This document shows, piece by piece, positions 3,217 through 55,011 of a stretch of 64,000 bases of DNA (position 1 is its first letter; every line of letters begins with the position of its first letter). A program made the position numbers and the translations under genes. Below the pieces are notes generated by a model. The model did no database searches. It was not told where the DNA came from and worked only from the letters and a program-made list of their open reading frames with translations. The stretch is taken from positions 1 through 64,000 of IMG/VR virus record IMGVR_UViG_2563366895_000001; one strand, written 5' to 3'. The stretch comes from a virus (taxonomy: Duplodnaviria > Heunggongvirae > Uroviricota > Caudoviricetes).

Positions 3217-3233
3217 CAACCAATTAGAGCAAT
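3217..3233 (-). promoter_or_regulatory. C1 operator-like site overlapping putative ref promoter
   Basis: Plus strand caaccAATTAGAGCAAT (11 of 17 consensus positions); minus strand has gctataat -10 immediately downstream. Confidence 0.45.
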
Positions 3234-3364
3234 TAAAGTTGTTTATTTATCGCGAATCACATTTTTTCACTTCAGTACCTGTGTGCTATACTCCTTCTTG
3301 ATTGATTGGATGCGGAATACAAACCCGCTCTTTTGTGCAGCCTGGCTCCTTGCCAGGCTTTTTT

Positions 3365-3676
3365 TTATTTCATCATGGAAGCTGTTAACGCTTTGGACCT
3401 TGCTGAACTGATTGAGAGGGCTTTGTCAACGTGCCCCAAAAATTCGCCAAACTCAGACATCACTTTAGCAAAACCGCGCCGTGCTTCTTCCTCGGTGGCA
3501 TTCATCACGAAATGTTCAGCACCACGCATACTTTTGACAGGGAACGCAACGGATATTGAATCAATATCAGGCATTCTATCGCTCAGCTTTACAGTGACAA
3601 TGACGGCTGGCGACTGAATATTAGTGCTTACAGACAGCACTACATATTTTCCGTCGATTTTGAAATCCTTTCTCAT
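3365..3676 (-). CDS. Hypothetical protein downstream of cre (c8-like position)
   Basis: 103-aa ORF; operator-like site at 3693-3709 just upstream. Confidence 0.45.
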   Translation of the reverse strand: MRKDFKIDGKYVVLSVSTNIQSPAVIVTVKLSDRMPDIDSISVAFPVKSMRGAEHFVMNATEEEARRGFAKVMSEFGEFLGHVDKALSISSARSKALTASMMK

Positions 3677-3692
3677 ATGTCACCATAAATAT

Positions 3693-3709
3693 CAAAGAAT
3701 TAGAGCAAT
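3693..3709 (-). promoter_or_regulatory. C1 operator-like site (partial match)
   Basis: caaagaATTAGAGCAAT between the cre stop and the 103-aa ORF. Confidence 0.35.
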
Positions 3710-3726
3710 CATTTACGCGTTAATGG

Positions 3727-4758
3727 CTAATCGCCATCTTCCAGCAGGCGCACCATTGCCCCCGTTTCACTATCCAGGTTACGAATGTAGTTCATGACAA
3801 TATTTACGTTGGTCCAGCCGCCAGCTTGCATGATCTCCGGTATAGAAACTCCGGCGCGGGCCATATCTCGCGCGGCACCGACACGGGCACTATGTCCAGA
3901 CCAGGCCAGGTATCGCTGACCAGAGTCATCTTTTGCCCCGTAAATCAATCGGTGAGTTGCTTCAAAAATCCCTTCCAGGGCGCGAGTTGATAGCTGGCTG
4001 GTGGATGATGGCGCGGCAACACCATTTTTTCTGACGCGGCAAAACAGGTAGTTATTCGGATCATCAGCTACACCAGAGACAGAAATCCATCGCTCAACCA
4101 GTTTAGTTACCCCCAGGCTAAGTGCCTTCTCTACACCAGCGGTGCTAACCAGCGTTTTCGTTCTGCCAATATGGATTAACATTCTCCCACCGTCAGTACG
4201 TGAGATATCTTTAACCCTGATCCTGGAAATTTCGGCTATACGTAACAGGGTGTTATAAGCAATCCCCAGAAATGCCAGATTACGTATATCCTGGCAGCGA
4301 TCGCTATTTTCCATGAGTGAACGAACCTGGTCGAAATCAGTGCGTTCGAACGCCAGTGCCTGTTTTGCACGTTCACCGGCATCAACGTTTTCTTTTCGGA
4401 TCCGTCGCATGACCAGTGAAACAGCATTGCTGTCACTTGGTCGTGGCAGACCGGACCGACGATGAAGCATATTTAGCTGGCCCAAATGTTGCTGGATAGT
4501 TTTCACTGCCAGACCGCGCGCCTGAAGATATAGAAGATAATCGCGAACATCTTCAGGTTCTGCGGGAAACCACTTCCGGTTATTCAACTTGCACCATGCC
4601 GCCCACGACCGGCAAACGGACAGAAGCATTTTCCAGGTATGCTCAGAAAACGCCTGGCGATCCCTGAACATGTCCATCAGGTTCTTGCGAACCTCATCAC
4701 TCGTTGCATCGACCGGTAATGCAGGCAAATTTTGGTGTACGGTCAGTAAATTGGACAT
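3727..4758 (-). CDS. cre: Cre site-specific tyrosine recombinase
   Basis: 343-aa translation recognised as P1 Cre (MSNLLTVHQNLPALPVDATSDEVRKNLMDMF...; catalytic region ...HSARVGAARDMARAGVSIPEIMQAGGWTNVNIVMNYIRNLD); loxP lies 420 bp upstream. Confidence 0.97.
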   Translation of the reverse strand: MSNLLTVHQNLPALPVDATSDEVRKNLMDMFRDRQAFSEHTWKMLLSVCRSWAAWCKLNNRKWFPAEPEDVRDYLLYLQARGLAVKTIQQHLGQLNMLHRRSGLPRPSDSNAVSLVMRRIRKENVDAGERAKQALAFERTDFDQVRSLMENSDRCQDIRNLAFLGIAYNTLLRIAEISRIRVKDISRTDGGRMLIHIGRTKTLVSTAGVEKALSLGVTKLVERWISVSGVADDPNNYLFCRVRKNGVAAPSSTSQLSTRALEGIFEATHRLIYGAKDDSGQRYLAWSGHSARVGAARDMARAGVSIPEIMQAGGWTNVNIVMNYIRNLDSETGAMVRLLEDGD

Positions 4759-4765
4759 TTAACAC

Positions 4766-4987
4766 TCAGATGATGGTTTTAAGTAAAGTGTACAGGATCG
4801 GCTCTGCCTTTACCTGTTTATGGTTCTCGTCATAGAAACGCCAGCGACCGCGCGTGCGTTCTATTTTCTCTTCACCGCGCGATAATGACAGTTGGCAACT
4901 ATCACGATCAAACCCTTTTGCCCGCCAGTAACCACGGTTTTTCTCAAGCTCAAGATGAGTGGACACTTTAGCAGTTGAATATCCCAT
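4766..4987 (-). CDS. cra: Small ORF between loxP and cre (cra-like, cre-associated)
   Basis: 73-aa ORF ending 8 bp before the cre start, same strand; name assigned from position only. Confidence 0.45.
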   Translation of the reverse strand: MGYSTAKVSTHLELEKNRGYWRAKGFDRDSCQLSLSRGEEKIERTRGRWRFYDENHKQVKAEPILYTLLKTII

Positions 4988-5082
4988 TTTTCACCTCTGA
5001 TTGATTGGTGGTGCTAAGTGCGCTACGCGAAATCTGTAGGACTAACACCGCCAACTTTGCACAGATTTTACGTAGCGCAACC

Positions 5083-5106
5083 TTGATCAAATGATCAAGT
5101 GATCAC
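5083..5106. promoter_or_regulatory. Cluster of three Dam (GATC) sites in the cre upstream region
   Basis: ttGATCaaatGATCaagtGATCac; consistent with the methylation-sensitive cre promoter known for P1. Confidence 0.4.
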
Positions 5107-5253: not shown

Positions 5254-5270
5254 ATAATTATTAGAGCAAT
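5254..5270 (-). promoter_or_regulatory. C1 operator (Op99-type, c1/coi control region)
   Basis: ataATTATTAGAGCAAT matches the reverse-complement consensus AAATTTATTAGAGCAAT. Confidence 0.6.
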
Positions 5271-5336: not shown

Positions 5337-5353
5337 ATTGCTCTAATAAATTA
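5337..5353 (+). promoter_or_regulatory. C1 operator overlapping a TTGACA -35 box
   Basis: TTGACA followed by ATTGCTCTAATAAATTA, 16 of 17 consensus positions. Confidence 0.65.
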
Positions 5354-5591: not shown

Positions 5592-5801
5592 ATGGCTTTC
5601 ATTCAACCAACCATCGACGACGTTAGACATTGCTCTAACGCTTTATCTGTAGACCCTGCCGAAACCGACGCTGCCCGCGCCATTGCTGAACACTACTCAA
5701 AGATATCCAATCAGGAGTACCGCATCACCCAAGACGACCTGGATGACCTCACTGACACAATCGAATATCTCATGGCAACTAACCAGTTGGACTCACAATA
5801 A
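5592..5801 (+). CDS. coi: Coi, C1 inactivator
   Basis: 69-aa ORF directly upstream of c1 on the same strand, downstream of C1 operators. Confidence 0.8.
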   Translation: MAFIQPTIDDVRHCSNALSVDPAETDAARAIAEHYSKISNQEYRITQDDLDDLTDTIEYLMATNQLDSQ

Positions 5802-5911
5802 ATGCACTAATAAATCTATTATTTTTGTTTGATCCCTCTATAATATAGGTCAGTAATGACCGGTTTTCTCAGCCGGGCGTTATTGACCATGTCAATTCTG
5901 GAGGAGGATCA

Positions 5912-6763
5912 ATGATAAATTATGTCTACGGCGAACAACTGTACCAGGAGTTCGTCAGCTTCAGGGATCTCTTTCTAAAAAAAGCTGTTGCACGCGCCCA
6001 ACACGTTGATACAGCCAGCGACGGTCGTCCTGTACGCCCGGTTGTCGTTCTACCGTTCAAAGAAACTGACAGCATTCAGGCTGAAATTGATAAATGGACT
6101 TTAATGGCGCGGGAACTGGAACAGTACCCAGACCTCAATATCCCAAAGACTATTTTATATCCAGTGCCTAACATCCTTCGCGGTGTGCGTAAGGTTACAA
6201 CTTATCAGACAGAGGCTGTGAACAGCGTCAACATGACCGCTGGCCGCATTATTCATCTGATTGATAAGGACATTCGCATCCAAAAAAGCGCGGGGATCAA
6301 TGAGCACAGTGCGAAATACATAGAGAACCTGGAAGCAACAAAAGAGCTAATGAAGCAGTACCCGGAGGATGAAAAATTCCGTATGCGCGTACACGGCTTT
6401 AGCGAAACAATGCTGCGCGTCCACTACATTTCCAGTAGCCCTAACTACAATGATGGTAAATCAGTTAGTTACCATGTGCCACTGTGTGGCGTGTTTATCT
6501 GCGATGAAACTCTCCGTGATGGAATTATCATCAACGGTGAATTCGAAAAAGCAAAATTTAGCCTTTATGACTCCATAGAACCGATCATCTGCGACCGCTG
6601 GCCGCAAGCAAAAATATATCGCCTGGCAGATATTGAAAATGTAAAAAAACAAATTGCCATCACTCGCGAAGAGAAAAAGGTTAAGTCAGCCGCATCAGTT
6701 ACGCGCAGCCGTAAAACCAAGAAGGGGCAGCCAGTAAACGACAACCCCGAAAGCGCGCAATAA
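5912..6763 (+). CDS. c1: C1 repressor of lysis
   Basis: 283-aa ORF (MINYVYGEQLYQEFVSFRDLFLKKAVARAQHVD...), length and context as P1 C1; its operator is scattered across the window. Confidence 0.9.
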   Translation: MINYVYGEQLYQEFVSFRDLFLKKAVARAQHVDTASDGRPVRPVVVLPFKETDSIQAEIDKWTLMARELEQYPDLNIPKTILYPVPNILRGVRKVTTYQTEAVNSVNMTAGRIIHLIDKDIRIQKSAGINEHSAKYIENLEATKELMKQYPEDEKFRMRVHGFSETMLRVHYISSSPNYNDGKSVSYHVPLCGVFICDETLRDGIIINGEFEKAKFSLYDSIEPIICDRWPQAKIYRLADIENVKKQIAITREEKKVKSAASVTRSRKTKKGQPVNDNPESAQ

Positions 6764-6795: not shown

Positions 6796-7911
6796 TTATT
6801 CAGCCGCCACCGGTTTTAACAAGCCAGCATCGAGCAGTTTACGCGTCAACCACTGCTGGCCTTTACCCGTTAATTGAGGCGTCAACCGTATCTGGTAGCC
6901 ATCTTCATCATCCAGCACCACTTCTTTCACCGTGAAATACCCCGCGTTGATGTACTGCTGGAACGGCACATTTTTACGTCCACCGGACGCTATCAGGATG
7001 CCGTTCTCCCGTAACCAGGCAAACAGCGCGTTTTGCTTAAGTCCAACAACCTTTGCAAAATTCCCAATCAGGATCCCTTTAGCTACTGATACCCGGTCGG
7101 CAAAATCGACTTTAGGAGCGGCGGCCACCAGCTGCTGATTTAGCTGGTGGGCTTTCTGTTCCAGAAGCTGCTTTTGTTCAGCCAGTTCGGCAGCCAGGCG
7201 TAGGGCTTCTGGTAATGTTTGGGGGATTGCAACCGGTTGCTGTTCTTTTTGTCGGAAGTAGCTGTCTTCCAGTTTTTCAAAGAATGCCCATGCCTGATCG
7301 GTTTCGATCATTTTAGCGTGGCGGGCTGCGCCGCGTTCCGTCCAGAGGATGAGTGAGCGGGCTTTAGGAGAGATAGGATTTTGTGAGTTACTTAAAGTCA
7401 CTCGCAAATTGTTCAAATCATCTCCAATAACTTTATAGAAATGCTTGCCTTCACAAAAACGTTCAGCATTACGGGAAAAGTTCTTCTTGATGTTATCCGC
7501 ATCTGTCCCATACCCCTTAGCAAGGATCTTAGTTGTCACTACACGCACTCCCAGCCATTCCAGAACGGGAATTTCATCAGACTGATTCTGAACAACCACC
7601 AGCTCCGATTCCTGAACTGAAGGTGCATGAGTTTTTTCTGATTTAACGTTAGTTGCTTTCATTCTGTGTGCCTCCTTGCGTGTTTCGGCTGCGACGGTTG
7701 CGTAATTCAGATGCCCCTGTTCGAGCAGGTATTCGCGGATATCAGACAACAGAATGCGGTGAACAGCGTTCTTGTCCTTTCTCCGGTAAAGTTGTTTGGT
7801 GATCATGAAGTAGTTGGCAATAACGCCCGGTATATCCCTGGTACTGATACAGGATGTGTGCTGTTCAATTGCCTCAATCATTTCTTCACGGGTGACTAAT
7901 GACGTTCTCAT
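6796..7911 (-). CDS. Antirepressor-like protein (KilA-C type C-terminal domain), paralog of immI Ant
   Basis: 371 aa; C-terminal about 95 aa nearly identical to Ant at 53426-54463 (GILIGNFAKVVGLKQNALF...GYFTVKEVVLDDEDGYQIRLTPQLTGKGQQWLTRKLLDAGLLKPVA) and related to KilA. Confidence 0.7.
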   Translation of the reverse strand: MRTSLVTREEMIEAIEQHTSCISTRDIPGVIANYFMITKQLYRRKDKNAVHRILLSDIREYLLEQGHLNYATVAAETRKEAHRMKATNVKSEKTHAPSVQESELVVVQNQSDEIPVLEWLGVRVVTTKILAKGYGTDADNIKKNFSRNAERFCEGKHFYKVIGDDLNNLRVTLSNSQNPISPKARSLILWTERGAARHAKMIETDQAWAFFEKLEDSYFRQKEQQPVAIPQTLPEALRLAAELAEQKQLLEQKAHQLNQQLVAAAPKVDFADRVSVAKGILIGNFAKVVGLKQNALFAWLRENGILIASGGRKNVPFQQYINAGYFTVKEVVLDDEDGYQIRLTPQLTGKGQQWLTRKLLDAGLLKPVAAE

Positions 7912-8129
7912 AGTCCCTCCTGAGCAGAAGCGTTAACAGGGAGGCACCAGTAACTGAGAGAGTTGCGCGAATCAGTGGAAAAGCGGGCAGAGAAAATGCA
8001 GGGAGCGTCAGGAAGCTGAGAACGGGCCTCATCTTCTGTCGGTGCAATAACGAAGTGATAGTGACGTTTCTGGCAGGAATAGAAGCGCCAGATGAATTCA
8101 GGATGAGTTGGGGTAGGGACAGTAGCCAT
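7908..8129 (-). CDS. Icd-like small protein (paralog of the icd at 54460-54681)
   Basis: 73 aa; shares EFIWRFYSCxKxHYHFVIAxTEDEARSQLPDxPCIFxARFSTxSRNSLSYW with the other 73-aa ORF; stop overlaps the ant-like start; RBS aaggagg. Confidence 0.55.
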   Translation of the reverse strand: MATVPTPTHPEFIWRFYSCQKRHYHFVIAPTEDEARSQLPDAPCIFSARFSTDSRNSLSYWCLPVNASAQEGL

Positions 8130-8313
8130 AATGGCAGCCTCCTTTGACTAAGTTAAGGAGCTACCGCGTGAGGTCTCAATCTCAATGGCGGTAGCACTGA
8201 CTGGGTTGAGACTACCGGCGTCAAAGGGAACCGGCCTGCCTTTCGGCAGCCCAGCCAGCACTACCATTGATTTCGGAGCTAAACGCTACGTATGGCTGTG
8301 CGATGGCATGACA

Positions 8314-8450
8314 CAAAAAAAGACGCTTTCGGCGTCTGTGTCGCCTTTGACATTATCCGGGGTCTCAATCCCGGCACCCGTTTTAATGAGGTGCCTGATA
8401 AGCATAAACCGAAAATGCCTCAAGGCGCAAGAGGTCAGGTTCAATGTAAC
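8314..8450 (-). ncRNA. c4-like antisense RNA region of the second immI-like module (approximate)
   Basis: Leader between the C1 operator (8469-8485) and the icd-like start; minus strand has hairpin CCGGGATTGAGACCCCGG, then terminator GACGCCGAAAGCGTC plus T7, then downstream complementary GTCTCAAC near the RBS. Confidence 0.35.
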
Positions 8451-8468: not shown

Positions 8469-8485
8469 CAATTTATTAGAGCAAA
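8469..8485 (-). promoter_or_regulatory. C1 operator upstream of the icd/ant-like module
   Basis: cAATTTATTAGAGCAAa. Confidence 0.55.
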
Positions 8486-8488: not shown

Positions 8489-9973
8489 TCATTCATTAAG
8501 CCATGCCAGAGCTTCATCAACCTGCGCTTCGTCTTCGACGCTAAGCACTTCATCCTGGGGAACATAATCCGCCAGCATAGCGAAACAATATGTATCCCAA
8601 TGGTCTGGTGAGTGCAGGTTGAGTTTTTTCTTCATATCCTCCTTACTCATCACCTTCCATTGACCTGCGGAGTTAATCCCTACAGGGATTTTCGACGCTT
8701 CCTCAATAGTTTCATTACCCTTATCCAGTCTCATACGACCAGATTTTACGGCCTCTGCGGCTTGAACGTTGGCATAAGCACGTTTATCAAAGTACAGGCT
8801 CTTATCTTCACGGCTATGCATCTTTTTACCCCAGCGTATGCGCTGTACGGTAATACCATAATACTCGTACATCAGATCCGCCGTTGCTTTACCCAGGCCA
8901 TCGCCGTCTATCGCTATGGTGATATTTGGGAATCGCTCAGGATTACATTCTGCGAAAATTTTGGCGGCAAGCTGCGTTTCTGTAACGTCTGTGTATTCCA
9001 GCATTCGATAGTTGATTACACGGCGTTTATTTCGCTGGCCGGACACCATCATGATATTGATAACGGACTTATCCCGTCCTGTACCACCAGCAACGTCCAC
9101 ACATGCAAGCCAGCCCCATCCTTTGGCAATCTTGACTTTCCGCCGCGTCGCACGTTCAACCTCATCACGTCCAAGAAGGAAGCCGTCCTGTGATTTAGGG
9201 AATAGCCCGCGTACCTTAATCATGTACATAGGGTTATCACGCCCGCCGTACTCCGCCAGCTTCATTTTGATAAATGCTGGCGTTACCAGCGGTGATTCCT
9301 CACTGTTAAGCGTGATCGCCGTATAAACGCCATCAGGGTTACCAGGACGCTTGGCCAGTTTATGGTGAGTATCGTAGAAATAGCCGCTTGGGCGTGTAGG
9401 CTGTGACAGTAATAAGATGCGGTTATCCTGTCCGGTAAGAGCACCAGTGATGATACCGAAAGCTCTATCACTGACACCGGAGGCTTCATCGATAATATAC
9501 AGAAGATGATCTGCGTGTTCACCGGCGAGAGCTTCTTCACTTCCCAGACGAAAGCCCTTCGGTACTACAGTCCATACACCTTTACCAGTAACCTCATAGA
9601 AAGCGGTTTCTGTCAGAACAAAATAATCAGCAAGCCATGGAAAACGGCTGGTGGCAGTAGCCCAGTTTATCTTGATGTACTTGAATATACCGGTCATTAC
9701 CTGCTGAATTTTGTTCGCAACGATAATGGCGCGGGCACCGGGATACATGATTATGAACAACATGATCATGATAGAAGTCATGTCTGATTTCCCGGTACCG
9801 TGACCAGACGAAACAGATGTCTTGCTACCCTGTTCCTGCACAGACTCAATAATCAGATCCTGCTGCCAGGTAGGTGTTTTGCCGAACAAAACATCAGCGG
9901 CCGCAATCCAGTCATAACGATATAGCGCCACCAGCTCGCGCCAACGTGGATCCGTTACGCAACTTCTGGCCAT
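8489..9973 (-). CDS. pacB: PacB, terminase large subunit
   Basis: 494-aa ORF whose start overlaps the pacA stop; gene order as in P1. Confidence 0.85.
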
Positions 9974-11251: not shown

Positions 11252-11704
11252 TCAGATACGTGCGGATGTGGCATTACCGTAATGACGGTGCTGACGGGCC
11301 ACCTTATTGAAAAGTTGACGCGCCATTACCCAAGGCTGGTGCTCCCGGCGTTCCTTTTCGTCCTGCGTCATATAGAGTTCGTTCTGGAGTTTTTCATCAA
11401 ACCGGCGCGGAGCGCGGCTACGGCGAAAGAATTCAGGATTCAGAGAGTGGATCTGAAATCTACGTGGGCGTGTACTGTCATCAATCAAAACAGACGAATA
11501 CTTAGACACAGCGATAGCTTTTAAGCGCAGATAAACATCGCGCTTATCGACATCCAGATGCGGGTATTCCTTTTCAAGAATTGCTGCGAGTTCTTTCGCT
11601 GATAGAAGAGATTTAGTGCGGATCATGTAATCCGCAATCTCGTACGATGTTATTCGTGAGTGATTTATTTCCATGAAGTGGCGTCCCTGCCAGTTAAGTA
11701 ACAT
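11252..11704 (-). CDS. lpa: Lpa, late promoter activator
   Basis: 150-aa ORF adjacent to pacA with a C1 operator just upstream; three structural operons carry a shared promoter motif. Confidence 0.6.
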   Translation of the reverse strand: MLLNWQGRHFMEINHSRITSYEIADYMIRTKSLLSAKELAAILEKEYPHLDVDKRDVYLRLKAIAVSKYSSVLIDDSTRPRRFQIHSLNPEFFRRSRAPRRFDEKLQNELYMTQDEKERREHQPWVMARQLFNKVARQHRHYGNATSARI

Positions 11705-11774: not shown

Positions 11775-11791
11775 CAATACATTAGAGCAAT
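11775..11791 (-). promoter_or_regulatory. C1 operator upstream of lpa
   Basis: caatacATTAGAGCAAT. Confidence 0.5.
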
Positions 11792-13825: not shown

Positions 13826-15388
13826 ATGAAAATGACAAGTATTCAACAACGTGCAGAGCTTCATCGTCAAATCTGGCAAATTGCTAACGATGTCAGGGGT
13901 TCGGTCGATGGATGGGATTTTAAGCAATACGTTCTGGGCGCACTTTTCTACCGTTTTATCAGCGAAAATTTTTCCAGCTATATTGAAGCCGGTGATGACA
14001 GTATCTGTTATGCGAAACTGGATGACAGCGTAATTACTGATGACATTAAAGACGATGCCATCAAAACTAAAGGCTACTTCATCTACCCCAGTCAGCTTTT
14101 CTGCAACGTAGCTGCGAAAGCAAATACCAATGACAGACTGAATGCAGATTTAAACAGTATCTTCGTTGCTATCGAAAGTTCTGCTTACGGTTATCCTTCA
14201 GAAGCTGACATCAAAGGTTTGTTTGCTGATTTCGATACCACCAGTAACCGCCTGGGTAACACCGTTAAAGATAAAAATGCCCGCCTGGCTGCGGTTCTGA
14301 AAGGGGTTGAAGGGTTAAAACTTGGTGACTTCAACGAACATCAGATTGACCTGTTCGGTGATGCCTATGAGTTCCTGATCTCTAACTATGCGGCAAATGC
14401 CGGTAAGTCAGGCGGCGAGTTCTTTACACCGCAGCACGTTTCTAAGCTGATTGCACAACTGGCTATGCACGGGCAGACCCACGTTAACAAAATCTACGAC
14501 CCGGCAGCAGGCTCCGGTTCGCTGTTGTTGCAGGCTAAAAAACAGTTTGATGACCATATCATCGAAGAAGGTTTTTTTGGTCAGGAAATCAACCATACGA
14601 CCTATAACCTGGCGCGTATGAACATGTTTTTGCACAACATCAACTACGACAAGTTTGATATCAAGCTGGGCAATACGCTGACTGAGCCGCACTTCAGAGA
14701 TGAAAAACCGTTTGATGCCATCGTTTCTAACCCGCCGTATTCGGTGAAATGGATTGGCAGCGATGACCCGACGCTGATTAACGATGAACGTTTTGCCCCG
14801 GCTGGCGTTCTGGCCCCCAAATCCAAAGCTGACTTTGCGTTTGTATTACATGCGCTGAACTATCTTTCTGCCAAAGGTCGTGCTGCGATTGTCTGCTTCC
14901 CGGGCATTTTTTACCGTGGCGGCGCAGAGCAGAAAATCCGTCAGTATCTGGTCGATAATAACTATGTCGAAACCGTAATTTCACTGGCACCGAACCTGTT
15001 CTTTGGCACCACCATTGCCGTAAACATTCTGGTTCTGTCTAAACATAAAACGGATACCAACGTTCAGTTTATTGACGCCAGCGAACTGTTCAAAAAAGAG
15101 ACTAACAACAATATCCTGACCGATGCCCATATCGAACAGATTATGCAGGTATTTGCCAGCAAGGAAGATGTTGCTCATCTGGCGAAATCTGTCGCGTTCG
15201 AAGCCGTTGTCGCGAATAACTATAACCTGTCGGTGAGCAGCTATGTAGAATCGAAAGATAACCGCGAAATTATCGATATTGCTGAGCTGAATGCGGAACT
15301 GAAAACCACGGTCAGCAAAATCAACCAGTTGCGTAAAGATATTGATGCGATTGTGGCTGAAATTGAGGGCTGCGAGGTGCAGAAATGA
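13826..15388 (+). CDS. hsdM: Type I restriction-modification methyltransferase subunit HsdM
   Basis: 520 aa; N6-adenine MTase motifs [10 protein letters not shown] (motif I) and VSNPPYS (motif IV). Confidence 0.92.
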
Positions 15389-16641
15389 GCGAGTTAAGTT
15401 ATCTGGAAAAATTGCTGGATGGGGTTGAGGTTGAGTGGAAACCCTTGAAGGATGTTTGTGATTTTAAAAATGGATTTGCATTTAAAAGCAGCTTATTTAA
15501 AGAAACTGGGTTACCGATAGTTAGAATCACAAATATAGATGGATTTAATGTTGACTTAGATGAGGTGAAATACTTTTCACTAAATGATTACAAGGAAGAT
15601 TTATCCTCCTTTGAGGTATCTATGGGAAATATATTGATTGCAATGTCAGGTGCCACTACAGGAAAAGTGGGAATTTATAAAAAAGGAACAAAATGTTATC
15701 TTAACCAACGGGTTGGGAAATTCATACCCAAAGAAAATATTCTAAACAATAATTATTTATACCATTTTTTATTGTTAAATACAGAGACTATTTATATCCT
15801 CGCCGGGGGCGGAGCACAACCGAATCTAAGCTCAAATGCATTGATGTCAAAACTACTCATCCCAATTCCCTGCCCGGATAATCCGGAAAAATCCCTTGCC
15901 ATCCAGTCTGAAATCGTTCGAATTCTGGATAAATTTACTGCACTTACCGCTGAGCTTACCGCTGAGCTTAACATGCGTAAAAAACAGTACAACTACTATC
16001 GCGACCAGTTGTTGAGTTTTAAAGAGGGTGAGGTTGAGTGGAAGACTTTGGGGGAAATTGGGAATTTTACCCGAGGTAAACGTTTTGTTAAAACAGATAT
16101 GCTTTCTGAAGGTTATCCATGTATTCATTATGGAGAAATGTATACTTATTACAACGTATGGACAAATAAAACAAAGTCATTTGTTAGCCAAGAACTGGCA
16201 AGTAAATTAAGAGTTTCAGAGTATGGTGATGTGATAATTGTTGCTGCCGGGGAAACAATTGAAGATATAGGAAAAGGAACAGCCTGGTTGGGTAAATCAA
16301 ATGTTGTTTTTCATGATGCTTGCTTTTCATACAGATGCTTACTAAACCCTAAATATATTGCATACTTTACTCGAACAAAAATATTCCATGATCAAATAAA
16401 AAAACACATATCTTCAGGAAAGATATCCGCAATTAACGCAAATGGGTTATCCAAGGTAAAAATACCTATGCTTTCAGCGAAGGAACAAGCTCGCATTGTC
16501 GAAATACTCGATAAATTCGACACCCTGACCAACTCCATCACCGAAGGTCTCCCGCGTGAAATTGAGTTGCGCCAGAAACAATACGAATACTACCGTGATT
16601 TACTGTTCAGTTTCCCGAAACCTGAAACTGTCAGTAATTAA
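15385..16641 (+). CDS. hsdS: Type I (IC-family) specificity subunit HsdS
   Basis: 418 aa; two target-recognition domains each followed by a conserved helix ([26 protein letters not shown] and [19 protein letters not shown]); start overlaps the hsdM stop. Confidence 0.9.
15943..15968 (+). repeat. Tandem 12-bp repeat (CTTACCGCTGAG x2) encoding the TAEL-TAEL spacer of HsdS
   Basis: Direct tandem duplication in the central conserved region of hsdS. Confidence 0.75.
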
Positions 16642-16762
16642 TTGACCATTGCTACCGATCGGGCCACCTTAACACCCGGTCAGTATATAGACTATTTTTT
16701 ACGCGCCGGAAGTCACTCTTAACGCCCTTCCGGCTCTTGCCAGGCGGCACAAAGGATGCGCT

Positions 16763-19700: not shown

Positions 19701-19879
19701 AACGCTATATTCGCACGTCTTTAAAACGCGAATACGCCACCGAAAATGGCACAGAATTAAACGAAACATTACCAAAACTTAGTCCGTTGAATCCGCAATA
19801 TAAAACGAAAAAACAGGCAGTTTTCCAGAAAATCGTCTCGTTTATTGAGAAGTTTAAAGGCGTAGGCGGAAAAATATAG
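16763..19879 (+). CDS. hsdR: Type I restriction endonuclease/translocase subunit HsdR
   Basis: 1038 aa; superfamily-2 helicase motifs (HTTGSGKT Walker A, DECH box) and N-terminal nuclease region. Confidence 0.92.
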
Positions 19880-19958: not shown

Positions 19959-20045
19959 TTACCCATGCGCGACGATGCCGCCAAAAGTGATAGAGAACAG
20001 CCAGAAATAGATCGCGGCCATAATGATTTTGAATGCCGTGTTCAT
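19959..20045 (-). CDS. Small hydrophobic peptide (28 aa), candidate membrane peptide
   Basis: ATG preceded by AGGAG at 7-nt spacing; MNTAFKIIMAAIYFWLFSITFGGIVAHG; below the 60-aa track cut-off. Confidence 0.25.
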   Translation of the reverse strand: MNTAFKIIMAAIYFWLFSITFGGIVAHG

Positions 20046-20127: not shown

Positions 20128-20144
20128 AGATTTATTAGAGCAAT
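20128..20144 (-). promoter_or_regulatory. C1 operator
   Basis: agATTTATTAGAGCAAT, 16 of 17. Confidence 0.55.
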
Positions 20145-36600: not shown

Positions 36601-36694
36601 CAGCAAACCACGCCGGACGCATACCCAACGGTTCCCAGGCAATACTCGCGGCTTCAATTCCACTGCAAACAGATCCATAGCACAGCTCTTTCAC
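33653..36694 (-). CDS. dmt: Dmt bifunctional DNA methyltransferase (N-terminal C5-cytosine domain, C-terminal Dam-like N6-adenine domain) carrying an intein
   Basis: 1013-aa ORF; C5 motifs GGTP...CQAFSIAG (IV, split by insert), VIVWENV (VI), QRRRRVFVV (VIII); Dam-like motifs [20 protein letters not shown]. Confidence 0.85.
35441..36463 (-). other. Intein (Hint domain with LAGLIDADG homing-endonuclease insert) within dmt
   Basis: 341-aa insert: starts [10 protein letters not shown] (Cys1), block B RTTNDH, LAGLIDADG motifs [11 protein letters not shown] and [10 protein letters not shown], block [23 protein letters not shown], +1 residue Cys of CQAFS; codon boundaries verified on the DNA. Confidence 0.85.
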
Positions 36695-37596: not shown

Positions 37597-37945
37597 GTTG
37601 TAACCCTTGAATATCAACCACAGAAAGCTCGTCTTTGTAGAAAAAGGCCAGGTTGTGGCACCCCCTCGTTTGAGCGTATGAGCTGGGACCAATTTCGTTC
37701 TTCCAGACAAATGGCTTCAAATCCGTACGGCGAAGCATAAAAACGCGATTTGTTCCGCTCTGATTCCCAATGAGGCAAAAGCCTTCTTTCACCTTGATAG
37801 CCTGCAAGTTGTCGAGTTCACCGCTGGTTACACGGCTATCGAACTCCTTGCGGCTTATTAGCTCCATCTGCATCTGACGACTCCAAACAAATGCCCATTG
37901 AAGGGCGATGGCTGAATGGTACCGAAAATACGACATAAAAAACAA
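37589..37945 (-). CDS. Hypothetical protein (start uncertain)
   Basis: 118-aa ORF; C1 operator overlaps its annotated start. Confidence 0.4.
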
Positions 37946-37961
37946 TATTTATTAGAGCAAT
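37945..37961 (-). promoter_or_regulatory. C1 operator
   Basis: AtATTTATTAGAGCAAT, 16 of 17. Confidence 0.55.
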
Positions 37962-49507: not shown

Positions 49508-49531
49508 AAAGCTCCTTCGGGAGCTTTTTTA
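49508..49531 (+). terminator. Rho-independent terminator
   Basis: aaagctcc-ttcg-ggagcttt followed by tttt. Confidence 0.6.
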
Positions 49532-49582
49532 TTTGGAGAGGAAAGGGTGCATTGAGGATACCTGACACACGAAGAGTGGCGG

Positions 49583-49592
49583 GGATCTCTCC
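49583..49592. repeat. Target-site duplication (left copy) of the IS186-like element
   Basis: GGATCTCTCC, repeated at 50932-50941. Confidence 0.7.
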
Positions 49593-50931
49593 CATAAGCG
49601 CTAACTTAAGGGTTGTGGTATTACGCCTGATATGATTTAACGTGCCGATGAATTACTCTCACGATAACTGGTCAGCAATTCTGGCCCATATTGGTAAGCC
49701 CGAAGAACTGGATACTTCGGCACGTAATGCCGGGGCTCTAACCCGCCGCCGCGAAATTCGTGATGCTGCAACTCTGCTACGTCTGGGGCTGGCTTACGGC
49801 CCCGGGGGGATGTCATTACGTGAAGTCACTGCATGGGCTCAGCTCCATGACGTTGCAACATTATCTGACGTGGCTCTCCTGAAGCGGCTGCGGAATGCCG
49901 CCGACTGGTTTGGCATACTTGCCGCACAAACACTTGCTGTACGCGCCGCAGTTACGGGTTGTACAAGCGGAAAGAGATTGCGTCTTGTCGATGGAACAGC
50001 AATCAGTGCGCCCGGGGGCGGCAGCGCTGAATGGCGACTACATATGGGATATGATCCTCATACCTGTCAGTTCACTGATTTTGAGCTAACCGACAGCAGA
50101 GACGCTGAACGGCTGGACCGATTTGCGCAAACGGCAGACGAGATACGCATTGCTGACCGGGGATTCGGTTCGCGTCCCGAATGTATCCGCTCACTTGCTT
50201 TTGGAGAAGCTGATTATATCGTCCGGGTTCACTGGCGAGGATTGCGCTGGTTAACTGCAGAAGGAATGCGCTTTGACATGATGGGTTTTCTGCGCGGGCT
50301 GGATTGCGGTAAGAACGGTGAAACCACTGTAATGATAGGCAATTCAGGTAATAAAAAAGCCGGAGCTCCCTTTCCGGCACGTCTCATTGCCGTATCACTT
50401 CCTCCCGAAAAAGCATTAATCAGTAAAACCCGACTGCTCAGCGAGAATCGTCGAAAAGGACGAGTAGTTCAGGCGGAAACGCTGGAAGCAGCGGGCCATT
50501 TGCTATTGCTAACATCATTACCGGAAGATGAATATTCAGCAGAGCAAGTGGCTGATTGTTACCGTCTGCGATGGCAAATTGAACTGGCTTTTAAGCGGCT
50601 CAAAAGTTTGCTGCACCTGGATGCTTTGCGTGCAAAGGAACCTGAACTCGCGAAAGCGTGGATATTTGCTAATCTACTCGCCGCATTTTTAATTGACGAC
50701 ATAATCCAGCCATCGCTGGATTTCCCCCCCAGAAGTGCTGGATCCGAAAAGAAGAACTAACTCGTTGTGGAGAATAACAAAAATGGTCATCTGGAGCTTA
50801 CAGGTGGCCATTCGTGGGACAGTATCCCTGACAGCCTACAAAACGCAATTGAAGAACGCGAGGCATCGTCTTAACGAGGCACCGAGGCGTCGCATTCTTC
50901 AGATGGTTCAACCCTTAAGTTAGCGCTTATG
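49593..50931 (+). mobile_element. IS186-like insertion sequence (IS4 family), 1339 bp
   Basis: 23-bp terminal inverted repeats CATAAGCGCTAACTTAAGGGTTG at both ends, single transposase ORF, 10-bp direct repeats, inserted into a G4-N6-C4 palindrome (typical IS186 target). Confidence 0.85.
49642..50760 (+). CDS. IS4-family DDE transposase
   Basis: 372 aa with C-terminal YRLRWQIELAFKRLKS motif. Confidence 0.85.
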   Translation: MPMNYSHDNWSAILAHIGKPEELDTSARNAGALTRRREIRDAATLLRLGLAYGPGGMSLREVTAWAQLHDVATLSDVALLKRLRNAADWFGILAAQTLAVRAAVTGCTSGKRLRLVDGTAISAPGGGSAEWRLHMGYDPHTCQFTDFELTDSRDAERLDRFAQTADEIRIADRGFGSRPECIRSLAFGEADYIVRVHWRGLRWLTAEGMRFDMMGFLRGLDCGKNGETTVMIGNSGNKKAGAPFPARLIAVSLPPEKALISKTRLLSENRRKGRVVQAETLEAAGHLLLLTSLPEDEYSAEQVADCYRLRWQIELAFKRLKSLLHLDALRAKEPELAKAWIFANLLAAFLIDDIIQPSLDFPPRSAGSEKKN

Positions 50932-50941
50932 GGATCTCTCC
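50932..50941. repeat. Target-site duplication (right copy)
   Basis: GGATCTCTCC. Confidence 0.7.
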
Positions 50942-50953
50942 CCGCCAGGTCTC

Positions 50954-51109
50954 TTACCTTTCAGATTCGTAGGCTGTGAAGACAGTGACCTCCGTCTGGC
51001 CGGTTCGGATTCGTACCTCGCAGAGGTCTTTCCTCGTTACCAGTGCCGTCACAATGACGGTTAAACAGATGACGATCAGAGCGATTAACATCGCTTTTTG
51101 CTGCTTCAT
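50954..51109 (-). CDS. hok: Hok/Gef-family type I toxin
   Basis: 51-aa ORF translated codon by codon: MKQQKAMLIALIVICLTVIVTALVTRKDLCEVRIRTGQTEVTVFTAYESER, close to E. coli HokD/RelF and HokC; AAGGAG RBS; below track cut-off. Confidence 0.85.
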   Translation of the reverse strand: MKQQKAMLIALIVICLTVIVTALVTRKDLCEVRIRTGQTEVTVFTAYESER

Positions 51110-51167
51110 AGCCTGCTTCTCCTTGACCTTTTGGTCGGTAAGAGGCTAATCTACGTATGCTAAGCAT
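50961..51167 (-). CDS. mok: Mok (modulation of killing) reading frame overlapping hok
   Basis: 68-aa track ORF overlapping hok in another frame and ending near the hok stop. Confidence 0.6.
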   Translation of the reverse strand: MLSIRRLASYRPKGQGEAGYEAAKSDVNRSDRHLFNRHCDGTGNEERPLRGTNPNRPDGGHCLHSLRI

Positions 51168-51230
51168 AGATATGGCCTCAGATTAATGTTAAGCGTCTTG
51201 CAGGACGCGTAATGTTATCTGGGGCTTTCT
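51159..51230 (+). ncRNA. sok: Sok-like antisense RNA (approximate)
   Basis: Plus-strand TTGACC, 18 bp, TAATCT promoter at 51123-51152 firing antisense across the mok start/RBS; 3' end not pinned down. Confidence 0.35.
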
Positions 51231-51290
51231 TCTATCTGCTTTTCGGGTAATGCCTGAAGCAGATAGCCTCAAGCACCCGCAACGATTGTA

Positions 51291-51617
51291 TCAATGTCTG
51301 GCTTTTTTTCTATAGAAATCACCTGGAAGGGTGAATATCCACATCAAAAGAAATGTTGCAGCAAACATGATCCCTAATGGCCAGACCGCGCCAAAGAAAA
51401 TCCATACTAAGATCTCCTCTGTTCGTTCTTTGCGGTCGATATCGACAAGCATTTTTCGGCTGATCATGTATACACAGAAGCCAATACAAACATATCCTGC
51501 AAAAGAGATCGCTAACTGTAAAAAATCAGATTGCATCTCCGACCTCAAACTGAAAACGCCAGGTGACTCCAGATTAGAGCAATTTATCACCCTCTGAATC
51601 CTGCCGGTATACCCCAT
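51291..51617 (-). CDS. Small membrane protein
   Basis: 108 aa with three hydrophobic segments. Confidence 0.4.
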   Translation of the reverse strand: MGYTGRIQRVINCSNLESPGVFSLRSEMQSDFLQLAISFAGYVCIGFCVYMISRKMLVDIDRKERTEEILVWIFFGAVWPLGIMFAATFLLMWIFTLPGDFYRKKARH

Positions 51618-52432
51618 TGTTCGTTATCTTTATTTTTGGCTAAAACCGCATTAAGAGCTTCGTTTACCGTCATGCAATGCGGCAGATTATCGAAGTTTGA
51701 TATCCCGCCAATATCAGGAGAACGCTTGTCCTTCAGGTAAGCATATTTCCGCGCTGCCGCCTCTACTTTCTGCTTGAACTCATGTTTTTGAGCGCGTTTT
51801 TTGGATAACCGCAGATTGTCAGCCTTTGCTTTTGCCTCAGCGATCCATGAAGTCAATTTTTTGAGTCTGGTCGTTCCGGCACCGCCGGAAACTGATCTTT
51901 TTGTTTTTTTAACTTGTGACTTCTTATTCTTTATTGCCACGTCATCCTGACAGGGGGAGGGGGTATCATTTTGACATGGGGGTGTGGATAAAAAATTAAA
52001 TAAAGCCAATGTCTTAGCGAGAACAGCTTTAACCTTGGTTGCCGCTGAAGAGATCTTTAATTTGCTTTCAATCAGCGCATTTTTGGCTTGTTGTGCGAAG
52101 GCCAAAAAGGATGGTGTAAACCGGTACAGGTTAGCGCGACGTTCACGGTGATCGCCGATAACAATCTCTACAGACAGGATTCCTTTGTTTACAGCTTCAC
52201 GGAATGCACGAACGACGGTTGATTGGCTATAACCAGTTTCTGCCGCGATCAGGCGGTGAGGCTTGTGAATGAAGTATTCACTGGTTGTTGCCGCGAGATT
52301 TGCACATTGCGACAGGATATGCCCGGCGCTACGGGATAGACCGGAGTGTGTTACAAAGCAGGCCAATTCATAGCCAGAAAAAGTAAAATCGCTCATCGTT
52401 ATACAGCTCAGGAAAGTGACTTTAGCCAGCAT
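51587..52432 (-). CDS. repL: RepL lytic replication initiator
   Basis: 281-aa ORF directly downstream of kilA, downstream of the Op53-type operator. Confidence 0.7.
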   Translation of the reverse strand: MLAKVTFLSCITMSDFTFSGYELACFVTHSGLSRSAGHILSQCANLAATTSEYFIHKPHRLIAAETGYSQSTVVRAFREAVNKGILSVEIVIGDHRERRANLYRFTPSFLAFAQQAKNALIESKLKISSAATKVKAVLAKTLALFNFLSTPPCQNDTPSPCQDDVAIKNKKSQVKKTKRSVSGGAGTTRLKKLTSWIAEAKAKADNLRLSKKRAQKHEFKQKVEAAARKYAYLKDKRSPDIGGISNFDNLPHCMTVNEALNAVLAKNKDNEQWGIPAGFRG

Positions 52433-52461
52433 TACAATGCTGGTGGTTCTTACTACGTCTG

Positions 52462-53262
52462 TTAGCGCGTTGCCGCGACAGGTACCAGCACACCAGCATC
52501 AAGCAATCGCTTCATCAGCCACTGCTGACCTTTGCCGGTTATACGAGTCGTGAAAGAAATCCTGCTTCCATTGCTTGTATCGATCACGGTTTCTTTAAGG
52601 GTGAAATACCCACGGGATATGTATTCTTGTTTGGGGACGTTCCTGCGTTCACCGGTTGCGATCAGAATTCCGTTATCACGCAACCAGGTGAAGAGATAGT
52701 TTTGGCCCAGGCCGAGCACTTTGGCATAGTTGCCGATTAGAACCCCGCTGGCGGTAGCAACGCGTTCGGCGAATTCGACTTTAGGTGCATCCATCAGCAT
52801 TTTTTGCTCCAGCCGTTGCTTTTGCTCTGCCAGGTCGGCAGCCAAACGGAGAGCTTCTGGGAGGCTCTTCGGAATAGCAGGTTGTAATCTTCCAGCTCGA
52901 TAGTCGATAAATGTCTGGTTTACCTTCAGCCGAAACGCGGGAGAAATCCAACCAGCGTACTCCACTGCGAGCAATTCATGGGCAAAAGTGCCGCCGCCAC
53001 GGCCTTCGAACGAAACTATGCAATTCTGCATAGTTTCTTTTTCAAGCTCTTCGATGAGCTGTTTAGCTGACAGCGTTCTTAGCCATTGAGCTGGCGCTTT
53101 ATGGGCACCGAGTCCGCTCGCTCTGTGTAGAGCATTAAGGTTGTAACGGCCAGCGCGGTCGGTCGTAATTTCAACACCACAAATAACAGGCAGAGTGGTT
53201 GAAGGATCGACATTTTGATGAAGGTTTGATATATTCATATCCGCATTGAATGTTTGTTGCAT
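52462..53262 (-). CDS. kilA: KilA (KilA-N DNA-binding domain plus KilA-C domain)
   Basis: 266 aa; C-terminus shares the LIGNYAKVLGLGQN...GYFTLKE block with the Ant proteins. Confidence 0.7.
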   Translation of the reverse strand: MQQTFNADMNISNLHQNVDPSTTLPVICGVEITTDRAGRYNLNALHRASGLGAHKAPAQWLRTLSAKQLIEELEKETMQNCIVSFEGRGGGTFAHELLAVEYAGWISPAFRLKVNQTFIDYRAGRLQPAIPKSLPEALRLAADLAEQKQRLEQKMLMDAPKVEFAERVATASGVLIGNYAKVLGLGQNYLFTWLRDNGILIATGERRNVPKQEYISRGYFTLKETVIDTSNGSRISFTTRITGKGQQWLMKRLLDAGVLVPVAATR

Positions 53263-53332
53263 TTTTTCTCCAAATTTGCATCAACCTTCAATCACCAGCT
53301 CGAAATGGTGATTCTTTGCACTTAGAAAACGA

Positions 53333-53349
53333 AATTTATTAGAGCAAAT
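53333..53349 (-). promoter_or_regulatory. C1 operator upstream of kilA-repL (Op53-type)
   Basis: AAATTTATTAGAGCAAa, 16 of 17, between the ant stop and the kilA start. Confidence 0.65.
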
Positions 53350-53425
53350 TTTTCTGACTCGATCCAGATCGGGTTGGTCGATCTGCTCAGAAACCTGCCA
53401 GTTTGCTGGCAGGTTTTTTCTTTTG

Positions 53426-54463
53426 TTAACCTATTGCTACTGGTTTTAACAAACCAGCATCAAGTAGCTTGCGAGTTAACCACTGCTGGCCTTTACCCGT
53501 TAATTGGGGCGTCAGCCGTATCTGGTAGCCATTTTCATCATCCAGCACCACTTCTTTCACCGTGAAATACCCGGCGTTAATGTACTGCTGGCGCGGTACG
53601 TTTTTGCGCGCACCAAAAGCCATGAGAATGCCGTTCTGGCGCAACCATGAGAAAAGGGCGTTTTGCTTAAGTCCAACGACCTTTGCAAAGTTCCCGATCA
53701 GGATTGCATTAGCCGCTGATACCCGGTCGGCAAAATCGACTTTAGGGGCTGCGGCCACCAGCTGTTGTTCCAACTGCATTTTCTGTTCTGCCAACTCGGC
53801 AGCCAGGCGTAGAGCGTCTGGTAATGTTTGGGGGATCGATGGCGCAGGGGAGTTTGCCTGCTGCAATTCTTCCAGTTTGTCGATCAGCGAACGGCGGACT
53901 GCTTTTGACTCGCGCGCGGCGACTCGCAGGGCTTGTTTGAAAGTCATGGTTATGACAAGCATTGATGTTTTGTTCATTTTTTCCACTACACTTTTTGTGT
54001 AGTGCTCACCATCAAGCTCATCGAGTATTTTTTCGATGAATTTGTTGTTCCGAACCTCTGGTTCCCTACATAACTTACGCGCTTCATTGACCATCTTTAA
54101 CAGTGTCAGGCTGTCGATTGTGTCTCCGGTGTTGGGGATGATATTCACGGCTGGTGCTGGCGTAGCTGAAGCAACAGGTGCTGGTTTTTCAACATTCAAA
54201 TTATTACCGGTCATTCTGCGCGCCTCCTTTCTCATTTCTGCTGCCACTGTTGCGTAACGTAGACGTCCTTGTTCAATCAAATAATCCCTGATCTCGGCTA
54301 TCAGTAGCCTGTTGATCACAGCCTTATCTGTTCGGGTATAAAAACGTCTGGTTATCATGAAATAGTTGGCAATTGCGCCGGGGATCTCCCGTGTCGGCAT
54401 ACAGGTTGTATGCAAAGCGATCGCTTTGGCTATTTCATTACGGGTGACGAGAGGTTTTTTCAT
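53426..54463 (-). CDS. ant: Ant antirepressor (immI)
   Basis: 345-aa ORF whose start overlaps the icd stop; KilA-C type C-terminus. Confidence 0.75.
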   Translation of the reverse strand: MKKPLVTRNEIAKAIALHTTCMPTREIPGAIANYFMITRRFYTRTDKAVINRLLIAEIRDYLIEQGRLRYATVAAEMRKEARRMTGNNLNVEKPAPVASATPAPAVNIIPNTGDTIDSLTLLKMVNEARKLCREPEVRNNKFIEKILDELDGEHYTKSVVEKMNKTSMLVITMTFKQALRVAARESKAVRRSLIDKLEELQQANSPAPSIPQTLPDALRLAAELAEQKMQLEQQLVAAAPKVDFADRVSAANAILIGNFAKVVGLKQNALFSWLRQNGILMAFGARKNVPRQQYINAGYFTVKEVVLDDENGYQIRLTPQLTGKGQQWLTRKLLDAGLLKPVAIG

Positions 54464-54681
54464 AAAACCCCCTGAACGTCGGCAGAGAAGGGGAGGTTCC
54501 AGTAACTAAGTGAATTGCGCGAGTTAGTTGAAAAACGGGCAGTAAAAATGCAGGGGCCATCAGGCAATTGAGAGCGTGCTTCGTCTTCTGTTGCTGCGAT
54601 GACGAAGTGATAGTGGTGTTTTTTGCAGGAATAGAAACGCCAGATGAATTCTTGGCGTGCGCAAGGATTGGCATTAACCAT
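54460..54681 (-). CDS. icd: Icd (immI small protein translationally coupled to ant)
   Basis: 73-aa ORF (MVNANPCARQEFIWRFYSCKKHHYHFVIAATEDEARSQLPDGPCIF...), RBS-bearing leader upstream. Confidence 0.65.
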   Translation of the reverse strand: MVNANPCARQEFIWRFYSCKKHHYHFVIAATEDEARSQLPDGPCIFTARFSTNSRNSLSYWNLPFSADVQGVL

Positions 54682-54699
54682 AGTTACGGCCTCACAATC

Positions 54700-54960
54700 A
54701 GGTTTAACAACCTGCTACCCGCTGCTAAACAGGTGGCAGGACGTGACGGGGTTAGCAGACTGGCGATTGTGAAACCAGCAGGCCGAAGCCTCCCCATCCC
54801 GCCCCACCATAATTTGGGCGTAACGCGGTTTTACGGACACAAAAATACCGCAATATCGGATATCTGCGGCTGTCCGCACAATCATTCAGGCTGCTAAACC
54901 CGGTCGCAGAATTTGCTACGACGGCGAAACTATAAGCCTGAACGATTAAAAGGTCAATAT
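54700..54960 (-). ncRNA. c4: c4-type antisense RNA and its target sites in the immI leader (approximate)
   Basis: Between the Op51-type operator and icd; minus strand has GGGTTTAGCAGCC, then complementary GTCTGCTAAC, then a second TTTAGCAG next to the icd RBS. Confidence 0.4.
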
Positions 54961-54994
54961 GATGCGAAAAGATAGCATTCGCGACTTAAAAATA

Positions 54995-55011
54995 CAAATT
55001 TATTAGAGCAG
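54995..55011 (-). promoter_or_regulatory. C1 operator upstream of immI (Op51-type)
   Basis: AAATTTATTAGAGCAga, 15 of 17. Confidence 0.6.

Follow-up and report, generated by a model that had tools for sequence, protein, structure and literature searches.

Predicted C1 operators of a natural P1/P7-mosaic phage-plasmid and a second immI-type module headed by one of them

A 64,000-nucleotide stretch of viral DNA (positions 1 to 64,000 of IMG/VR record IMGVR_UViG_2563366895_000001, hereafter the window) carries dispersed copies of a 17-bp motif that are very probably operators of C1, a lysogeny repressor of the P1 type. The stretch belongs to a natural phage-plasmid, a mosaic of P1 and P7. One of the motif copies heads an additional immI-type module, here called module 2, which gives the element two such modules where P1 and P7 have one. 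In P1, C1 binds an asymmetric 17-bp site; the corepressor Lxc assists this binding and Coi and Ant counteract it, and every C1 operator either overlaps a sigma-70 promoter or lies next to one. In Escherichia and Salmonella, P1-like phage-plasmids frequently carry genes for resistance and virulence. How they are maintained, become induced and exclude one another is determined by the C1/Coi/Lxc/Ant/C4 circuit that was worked out in laboratory P1 and P7. A dispersed C1 regulon is in itself textbook P1 biology. The repressor has been described as binding 22 dispersed operators of consensus ATTGCTCTAATAAATTT, repressing repL, lpa and other genes and being modulated by Coi, Lxc and Ant/C4 (PMC8546580).

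We searched both strands of the window for this consensus, allowing up to three mismatches, and obtained 14 matches against 0.31 expected from 100 dinucleotide-preserving shuffles, none of which gave more than 3. The exact 11-mer core ATTGCTCTAAT is present in 11 copies (about 0.03 expected) and TGCWCTAAT in 18 (about 1 expected). As a further approach, a position weight matrix (PWM) was built from the 20 half-sites that carry the protein_bind label 'phage repressor C1' in the P1 reference AF234172, whose GenBank annotation by the genome authors was also our source for the P1 operator map. With a threshold of 14 bits the matrix returned 19 sites of 14.5–27.1 bits, whereas 300 shuffles averaged 0.81 sites and none exceeded 6. 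Because the matrix was trained on orthologous P1 sites, this excess is not an independent result, a limitation that the consensus and exact-core counts do not share. The distribution of scores is bimodal, with a clean gap from 14.5 bits down to the next best match at 11.4 bits. Together with two sub-threshold sites at annotated P1 positions (Oc1b at 4.1 bits and a remnant of Orlf at 5.4 bits), the set comprises 21 sites. They have the properties of the operator as defined, being asymmetric, 17 bp long and like the consensus, with a conserved core at positions 2–11; the sites at 3217 (15.8 bits) and 3693 (18.4 bits) depart from the consensus at four positions, yet their 11-nt cores are perfect. 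An earlier note on this DNA had claimed at least 15 dispersed copies in both orientations, which proved correct for the orientations and an undercount for the copies, and the matches are far above what chance would give. A site is present at each of the 15 positions listed in that note, two of which were one base off (53333 for 53332 and 54995 for 54996), and the one it called weaker, at 51567, is indeed so, consisting of the 11-nt core only. The list was incomplete, missing the sites at 2551 (Omat), 5629 (Oc1c), 5801 (Oc1a with the weak overlapping Oc1b), 24987 (Oppp) and 33635 (Obanb).

Synteny and sequence identify 19 of the 21 sites as orthologues of annotated P1 operators; these 19 are likewise syntenic with mapped P1 promoters, and only 10 of the 323 operator positions compared differ from P1. 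The remaining two are the site at 3693, the P1 counterpart of which is present but unannotated, and the module 2 operator at 8469, which P1 lacks; Ossb of P1 falls outside the window. The cognate repressor is encoded by the same element as the operators, and as it matches P1 C1.100 at 281 of 283 residues, its operator specificity should equal that of P1. The resemblance to the P1 network thus extends from the consensus and the repressor to the genes beside these 19 sites and to both bivalent operators (Oc1ab and Obanab), in agreement with the match to the dispersed P1 network that had been proposed. The window differs from that network in the extra operator at 8469, heading a cassette absent from P1, in a perfect core at the c8 site where P1 has an unannotated C-to-A variant, in an Orlf cut to its core, and in the replaced or displaced cargo behind OpmgT, Oban, Orlf and Omat. 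The genes assigned to the sites earlier were the right ones for ref (3217), coi-c1, lpa, kilA-repL, dmt/hrdC and the canonical c4-icd-ant, and the wrong one for 3693, which precedes c8. To these can be added sites that had gone unnamed, namely those of pmgT (20128), pmgR (22221 and 22270), ppp (24987) and 26/pmgL (25894) and the ban operators (33635 and 33646). The published operator map therefore transfers almost site for site to a natural mosaic element, and to this extent the regulon is predictable from sequence.

By megablast the window belongs to a punavirus that is inverted relative to the P1 map, with vB_EcoM-673R5, phi456, SJ46 and RCS47 as its top phage matches and with P1 and P7 about 95% identical to it across the shared parts. 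A blastn map aligned 46.6 kb of the 64 kb to P1, at 92–98% identity over most of the length, and about a dozen segments are replaced or inserted relative to P1. An identical plasmid was not found in PLSDB, where the best match had 97.9% identity over 97% of positions 12000–36000. Judged by these alignments, the window is a natural P1/P7 mosaic phage-plasmid.

To assess the conservation of the operators, we pooled nine of them, all within 10 kb of c1, over 80 IMG/VR loci encoding a C1 about 100% identical to that of the window. The minor-allele fraction was 0.0033 at core positions 2–11 versus 0.025–0.031 in the 60-nt flanks, so that polymorphism is about 8-fold lower in the operator cores than beside them, and no 10-nt window of the flanks was equally conserved. 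It is this conservation, taken together with the P1 annotation and the literature, that leads us to read the sites as a C1 regulon, to which C1 would be expected to bind in this element as it does in P1. The core TGCTCTAAT also resembles an extended -10 box (TGnTATAAT), and it could be supposed that it is primarily a promoter element and not a repressor site; the c8 site of P1 carries TGCTATAAT, a perfect extended -10 box, and many P1 operators overlap annotated -10 or -35 hexamers. We regard this as very improbable, because the annotated operators overlap the -35, the -10 or neither and stand in both orientations with respect to transcription, unlike a single promoter element, because all 10 core positions are conserved, including an ATTG that lies outside any -10, and because both the P1 literature and the record annotation assign the sites to C1. 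That the matches are a chance A+T-rich word in A+T-rich intergenic DNA with no common function, as the low-complexity 3' half of the motif (AAATTT) and the PWM matches of 6–10 bits that hardly exceed the shuffles (53 observed versus 44 expected at 6 bits) might suggest, is ruled out by the shuffle tests and, given also the orthology to mapped P1 operators and the conserved cores, has a vanishingly small probability.

If the sites are C1 operators, C1 (with Lxc) would occupy all of them in the lysogen. In P1, a single repressor acting at promoter-linked sites thereby silences many scattered early and lytic operons of the plasmid prophage, namely ref, mat, cre from P4, coi/c1, lpa, pmgT, pmgR, ppp, 26/pmgL, ban, dmt, kilA-repL, rlf and P51a of c4-icd-ant. 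Several observations weigh against taking the whole set as a working P1 regulon. The gene for Lxc lies outside the 64-kb window. OpmgT now precedes a 28-codon open reading frame (ORF) and then the 3' end of a convergent hsdR. Oban is without ban, the tRNA/tci/ban/dbn block of P1 (tRNA genes, tciABC, the DnaB-like helicase gene ban and dbn) being absent at window positions 30573–33000. The junction of the segment that replaces rlf lies exactly past the 11-nt core of Orlf, of which only this core is kept, and a 680-bp non-P1 insertion (1860–2539) separates Omat from the mat promoter. These four operators are probably orphaned or weakened. It had been suggested that the sites show which accessory genes fall under lysogenic repression, and this is not simply so: several operators have lost their P1 cargo, and with cargo replaced or displaced the operator list is no simple read-out of the repressed accessory genes.

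The c1 and pacB stops (at 6763 and 8489–8491 of the window) are separated by 24 nt in P1 and by 1728 nt in the window, and it is in this interval that module 2 is found. The earlier note had also proposed a second immI-like module headed by a C1 operator, and the region does contain an operator, an isrK-type leader, a C4 RNA, icd and ant between pacB and c1. The order on the minus strand is operator, promoter-like pairs, leader with boxes a1 and b1 and a terminator, C4-2, boxes a2 and b2, icd-2 and ant-2. The leader carries a1 (TTGAGAC, 8368–8362), b1 (GTCAAAGG, 8351–8344) and a terminator-like hairpin (8337–8321) followed by a T-run. Two weak promoters are predicted upstream, and the start expected for the second, near 8394, falls on the 5' boundary of the isrK match. 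The icd-2 stop overlaps the ant-2 start in an ATGA junction, as in the canonical module. Ant-2 is 54% identical to canonical Ant, with about 90% identity over the C-terminal ~145 residues. The canonical immI of the window is P7-type in its operator, boxes and loops. Complementarity between boxes and C4 loops is exact (7–8 nt) within each module and absent between the modules, and thus two orthogonal C4 circuits are present in one element. The distance from operator to a1 is 117 nt in module 2 versus 115 nt in canonical immI, and the spacing from operator to C4 likewise mirrors that at Oc4.

Module 2 is not peculiar to this element. Of 71 informative IMG/VR loci, 35 have it, or about half of the relatives, and 302 PLSDB plasmids contain at least 80% of it. 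Its operator is identical in RCS47, JL22, vB_EcoM-673R5, an E. coli plasmid and an E. albertii plasmid, even with a leader that is only 78% identical. The a and b boxes occur in five combinations (three a types and three b types), and in each of these the C4 loops carry exactly compensating changes, a co-variation that provides strong evidence that the RNA circuit is functional and diversifying in specificity. We also scanned IMG/VR for the invariant leader segment AAAACGGGTGCCGGGATTG, which gave 119 usable instances. A C1 operator was present in 40 of 40 instances with the pacB end upstream and in 0 of 79 elsewhere (51 distinct upstream sequences), an association uncorrected for shared ancestry. 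The absence from the non-P1 contexts indicates that the operator does not travel with the cassette and is specific to C1-encoding genomes, the pattern to be expected of a link between the cassette and the repressor of its host element.

We considered whether the site at 8469–8485 might have no part in the regulation of module 2, being instead a relic that came in with it, or else a sequence that acts as a roadblock to late transcription of pacA-pacB or helps to terminate it. The operator lies directly behind pacB, and pacA-pacB transcription runs in the same direction. Apart from the uncorrected ancestry, C1 control of the module is weakened by a consensus promoter scan of the module head that detected none and by the lack of significant similarity to the Oc4-P51a head beyond the operator, where 12 of 28 nt agree (P=0.12). 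A site without such a role nevertheless seems improbable to us. The core is intact in every P1-context copy (35 of 35, and 40 of 40 in the leader scan), with variation at positions 1 and 12 only, and its absence from all 79 other contexts means that it did not simply travel with the cassette. The spacings to a1 and to C4 mirror those of Oc4, and the 3-nt overlap with the -35-like TTGTGT reproduces the geometry of Oc4 and P51a. A roadblock, moreover, would still amount to C1-dependent control of read-through into module 2.

With the operator taken as a regulator of module 2, the two immI heads would work alike. C1 would damp the upstream promoter of each, and the downstream promoter would supply the leader and the C4 RNA, which would pair with a2 and b2 and so block translation of icd and ant. 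Such a block is established for P1 immI, and by analogy C4-2 would block the synthesis of Icd-2 and Ant-2. The isrK-type leader with its a1 and b1 boxes could, speculatively and by analogy with the IsrK RNA of Gifsy-1, be a decoy for C4. With two orthogonal C4/Ant channels, antisense immunity would cover a wider range of incoming relatives, and the element would have an antirepressor that a resident with only one C4 type cannot silence.

The nearest known system is the immI region of P1 and P7 (Oc4/Op51 - P51a/P51b - a1 b1 - c4 - a2 b2 - icd - ant1/2), with which module 2 shares the elements (its promoters being putative), their order and a similar spacing, a C4 RNA of the same Rfam family and the coupled icd and ant. 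In contrast to P1/P7 immI, module 2 lies between pacB and c1 and not beside sim and kilA, its boxes show no relationship to the P1 or P7 boxes, its leader fits the isrK and not the c4-a1b1 model, and Ant-2 has an ORF6N central domain. A second likeness is to the IsrK-orf45-anrP locus of Gifsy-1 in Salmonella, where a short RNA activates antirepressor translation in trans, via orf45 (PMC4825925). The module 2 leader passes the isrK threshold, and in both systems a short terminated RNA precedes an antirepressor gene that requires read-through. The Gifsy-1 locus is described neither as a C4 antisense system nor as being under a P1-type C1 operator (PMC4825925), whereas module 2 has a bona fide C4 RNA and icd between leader and ant. 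In orf45 the nucleotide sequence is conserved while the amino-acid sequence varies (PMC4825925); as a C4 RNA stands between leader and antirepressor operon in our element, the Gifsy-1 region might by analogy encode a C4-type RNA instead of a protein. The third comparison is with phage D6 (MF356679), a distant relative of P1, in which the leader, C4 and the start of icd are about 91% identical to module 2, with the same a-box and a b-box of the JL22 class. Unlike the window, D6 has no P1-type C1 operator within 5.3 kb, the homology beginning about 30 nt downstream of the operator, and the module is its only one and has a different genomic neighbourhood.

The insertion between pacB and c1 has been mentioned for pTZ20_1P and RCS47 as 'two short hypothetical orfs and ant' (PMC6906374), and the RCS47 record annotates it only as 'ant'. 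In the part of the literature that was covered, we found no description of the C4 RNA, boxes, classes or C1 operator of module 2 or of a second c4 immunity system. The chances seem to us about even that roughly half of the natural P1-like phage-plasmids, P1 and P7 not among them, carry a second antirepressor circuit with its own orthogonal antisense RNA, of a cassette type that is found widely among other prophages and that a context-specific operator has linked to the C1 regulon, and that its at least five co-varying box classes form a two-channel combinatorial heteroimmunity code deciding mutual induction or exclusion. For the natural population, the laboratory paradigm is incomplete, with about half of the sampled relatives having a second C4-gated antirepressor, in several classes, under a C1 operator. 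If the cassette is functional, it would alter the expectation as to which P1-like elements, co-resident or superinfecting, set off the lytic cycle in one another, and the cassettes would constitute a natural set of orthogonal antisense switches.

Table 1. Predicted C1 operators, components of the two immI-type modules and associated genes in the window
Feature	Positions	Strand	Description
Omat equivalent	2551-2567	-	CATGCACTAATATATTT, 18.1 bits; overlaps ref 3' end
ref	2558-3118	-	Pfam RecA_dep_nuc
Oref equivalent	3217-3233	-	ATTGCTCTAATTGGTTG, 15.8 bits; 99 nt upstream of ref
c8-upstream operator-like site	3693-3709	-	ATTGCTCTAATTCTTTG, 18.4 bits; between cre stop (3727) and c8 start (3676)
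Oc1e equivalent	5254-5270	-	24.2 bits; adjoins lox and cre promoter P4
Oc1d equivalent	5337-5353	+	25.2 bits; at coi promoter P1coi
coi, C1 inactivator	5592-5801	+	69 aa; RCS47 annotation of the same segment
Oc1c equivalent	5629-5645	+	ATTGCTCTAACGCTTTA, 14.5 bits; within coi; same as P1; invariant in 80 of 80 relatives
Oc1ab bivalent equivalent	5801-5828	+ and -	promoter Pc1; Oc1a 5801-5817 (+), 22.9 bits; weak overlapping Oc1b 5812-5828 (-), 4.1 bits
c1 repressor gene	5912-6763	+	283 aa; 281/283 identical to P1 C1.100
ant-2 antirepressor	6796-7911	-	371 aa; Pfam ORF6N + ANT/KilAC; phrog_63
icd-2	7908-8129	-	73 aa; 79% identical to canonical Icd over a 63-aa BLASTP alignment
C4-2 target boxes	8141-8179	-	a2 TTGAGAC, 8179-8173; b2 GTCAAAGG, 8148-8141, overlaps icd-2 ribosome-binding site
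C4-2 antisense RNA gene	8184-8271	-	Rfam RF01695, 75.4 bits (gathering score 45)
isrK-family leader	8316-8394	-	RF01394, 60.2 bits (gathering score 50)
Putative weak sigma-70 promoter 2	8430-8401	-	TTGCGC (8430-8425)-N18-TATGCT (8406-8401); read by eye; conserved in phage D6
Putative weak sigma-70 promoter 1	-35 at 8471-8466	-	TTGTGT (8471-8466)-N17-TACATT; read by eye; overlaps operator by 3 nt, like P51a at Oc4
Module 2 operator	8469-8485	-	TTTGCTCTAATAAATTG, 21.3 bits; 3 nt past pacB stop; no P1 or P7 counterpart
Olpa equivalent	11775-11791	-	19.0 bits; upstream of lpa (11252-11704)
OpmgT equivalent	20128-20144	-	25.8 bits; downstream cargo replaced
OpmgRb equivalent	22221-22237	+	20.8 bits
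OpmgRa equivalent	22270-22286	-	22.1 bits; upstream of pmgR and pmgS
Oppp equivalent	24987-25003	+	TATGCACTAATTAATTT, 19.0 bits
O26 equivalent	25894-25910	+	24.5 bits; between divergent pmgL and 26
Obanab bivalent equivalent	33635-33662	+ and -	Obanb 33635-33651 (+), 22.9 bits; Obana 33646-33662 (-), 27.1 bits, perfect consensus
Odmt equivalent	37945-37961	-	25.7 bits; upstream of uhr, hrdC, dmt
Orlf remnant	51567-51583	-	ATTGCTCTAATCTGGAG, 5.4 bits; directly after repL stop; 11-nt core only; P1 homology stops at 51573
OrepL equivalent	53332-53348	-	23.6 bits; upstream of kilA (52462-53262) and repL (51587-52432)
Canonical immI RNA elements	54729-54935	-	c4-a1b1 motif 54883-54935; C4-1 RNA 54729-54814 (RF01695, 64.9 bits)
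Oc4 equivalent	54996-55012	-	TCTGCTCTAATAAATTT, 20.4 bits; identical to P7 Op(c4); upstream of c4-icd-ant

The site upstream of c8 merits a separate description. Its P1 counterpart is ATTGCTATAATTATTTG at AF234172 1485–1501, which scores 17.8 bits. Of 62 relatives, 58 have the perfect core and four the P1 variant, and the reference P1 thus carries a minority variant, ATTGCTATAAT, that forms a perfect extended -10 box (TGcTATAAT). A promoter is predicted at 3693, and c8 of laboratory P1 may be de-repressed relative to that of most natural relatives.

We also examined what has taken the place of the P1 cargo. The pmgT-to-humD block of P1 is replaced by a type I restriction-modification locus, hsdM-hsdS-hsdR (13826–19879, plus strand), in the opposite orientation, with an R subunit that carries an EcoR124_C domain. 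The P1 record notes that the flanks of this block are homologous to sequences around the EcoDXXI and R124 hsd loci. The 28-codon ORF next to hsdR (19963–20045, minus strand) encodes a hydrophobic sequence, MNTAFKIIMAAIYFWLFSITFGGIVAHG, and lies directly downstream of OpmgT and the promoter region, within a stretch that is common to P1 and unannotated there; it may specify a small membrane peptide under C1 control. In place of the ban block there are an HNH-endonuclease-like ORF (32506–32925) and ORFs without assigned function. A tRNA-Asn gene is truncated at 32952, and ARAGORN detected no tRNA in the 64-kb window. The genes rlfA and rlfB are replaced (49531–51572) by an insertion sequence with a DDE_Tnp_1 transposase (49642–50760) and by a hok/sok-type locus, in which the sok RNA (RF01794) was found at 51104–51278 with 114.9 bits. 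The 680-bp insertion between Omat and mat contains a gene for a 184-aa protein (phrog_15156; 1957–2511, plus strand). Four of the 21 breakpoints of P1 homology fall within 12 nt of an operator (2539, 8490, 51572 and 55011; P=0.00015 under a uniform null). The idea that operators serve as recombination linkers was rejected, as the clustering was unsupported once junctions were confined to intergenic DNA (P=0.09–0.26).

Three further segments differ from P1. The Dmt ORF (33653–36694, minus strand) is 1013 aa long versus 754 aa in P1, and between its C5- and N6-methylase parts it has Hint, intein-splicing and LAGLIDADG matches that coincide with the non-P1 segments 34766–34949 and 35441–36460, so that dmt looks as if it carries an inserted intein. 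An EAL-domain protein is encoded at the start of the window (287–976, plus strand) as non-P1 cargo. Where P1 has sim, a lipoprotein-like ORF with a weak TraT match and a gene for a DUF5384 protein are found in a P7-like arrangement (55294–56358, plus strand).

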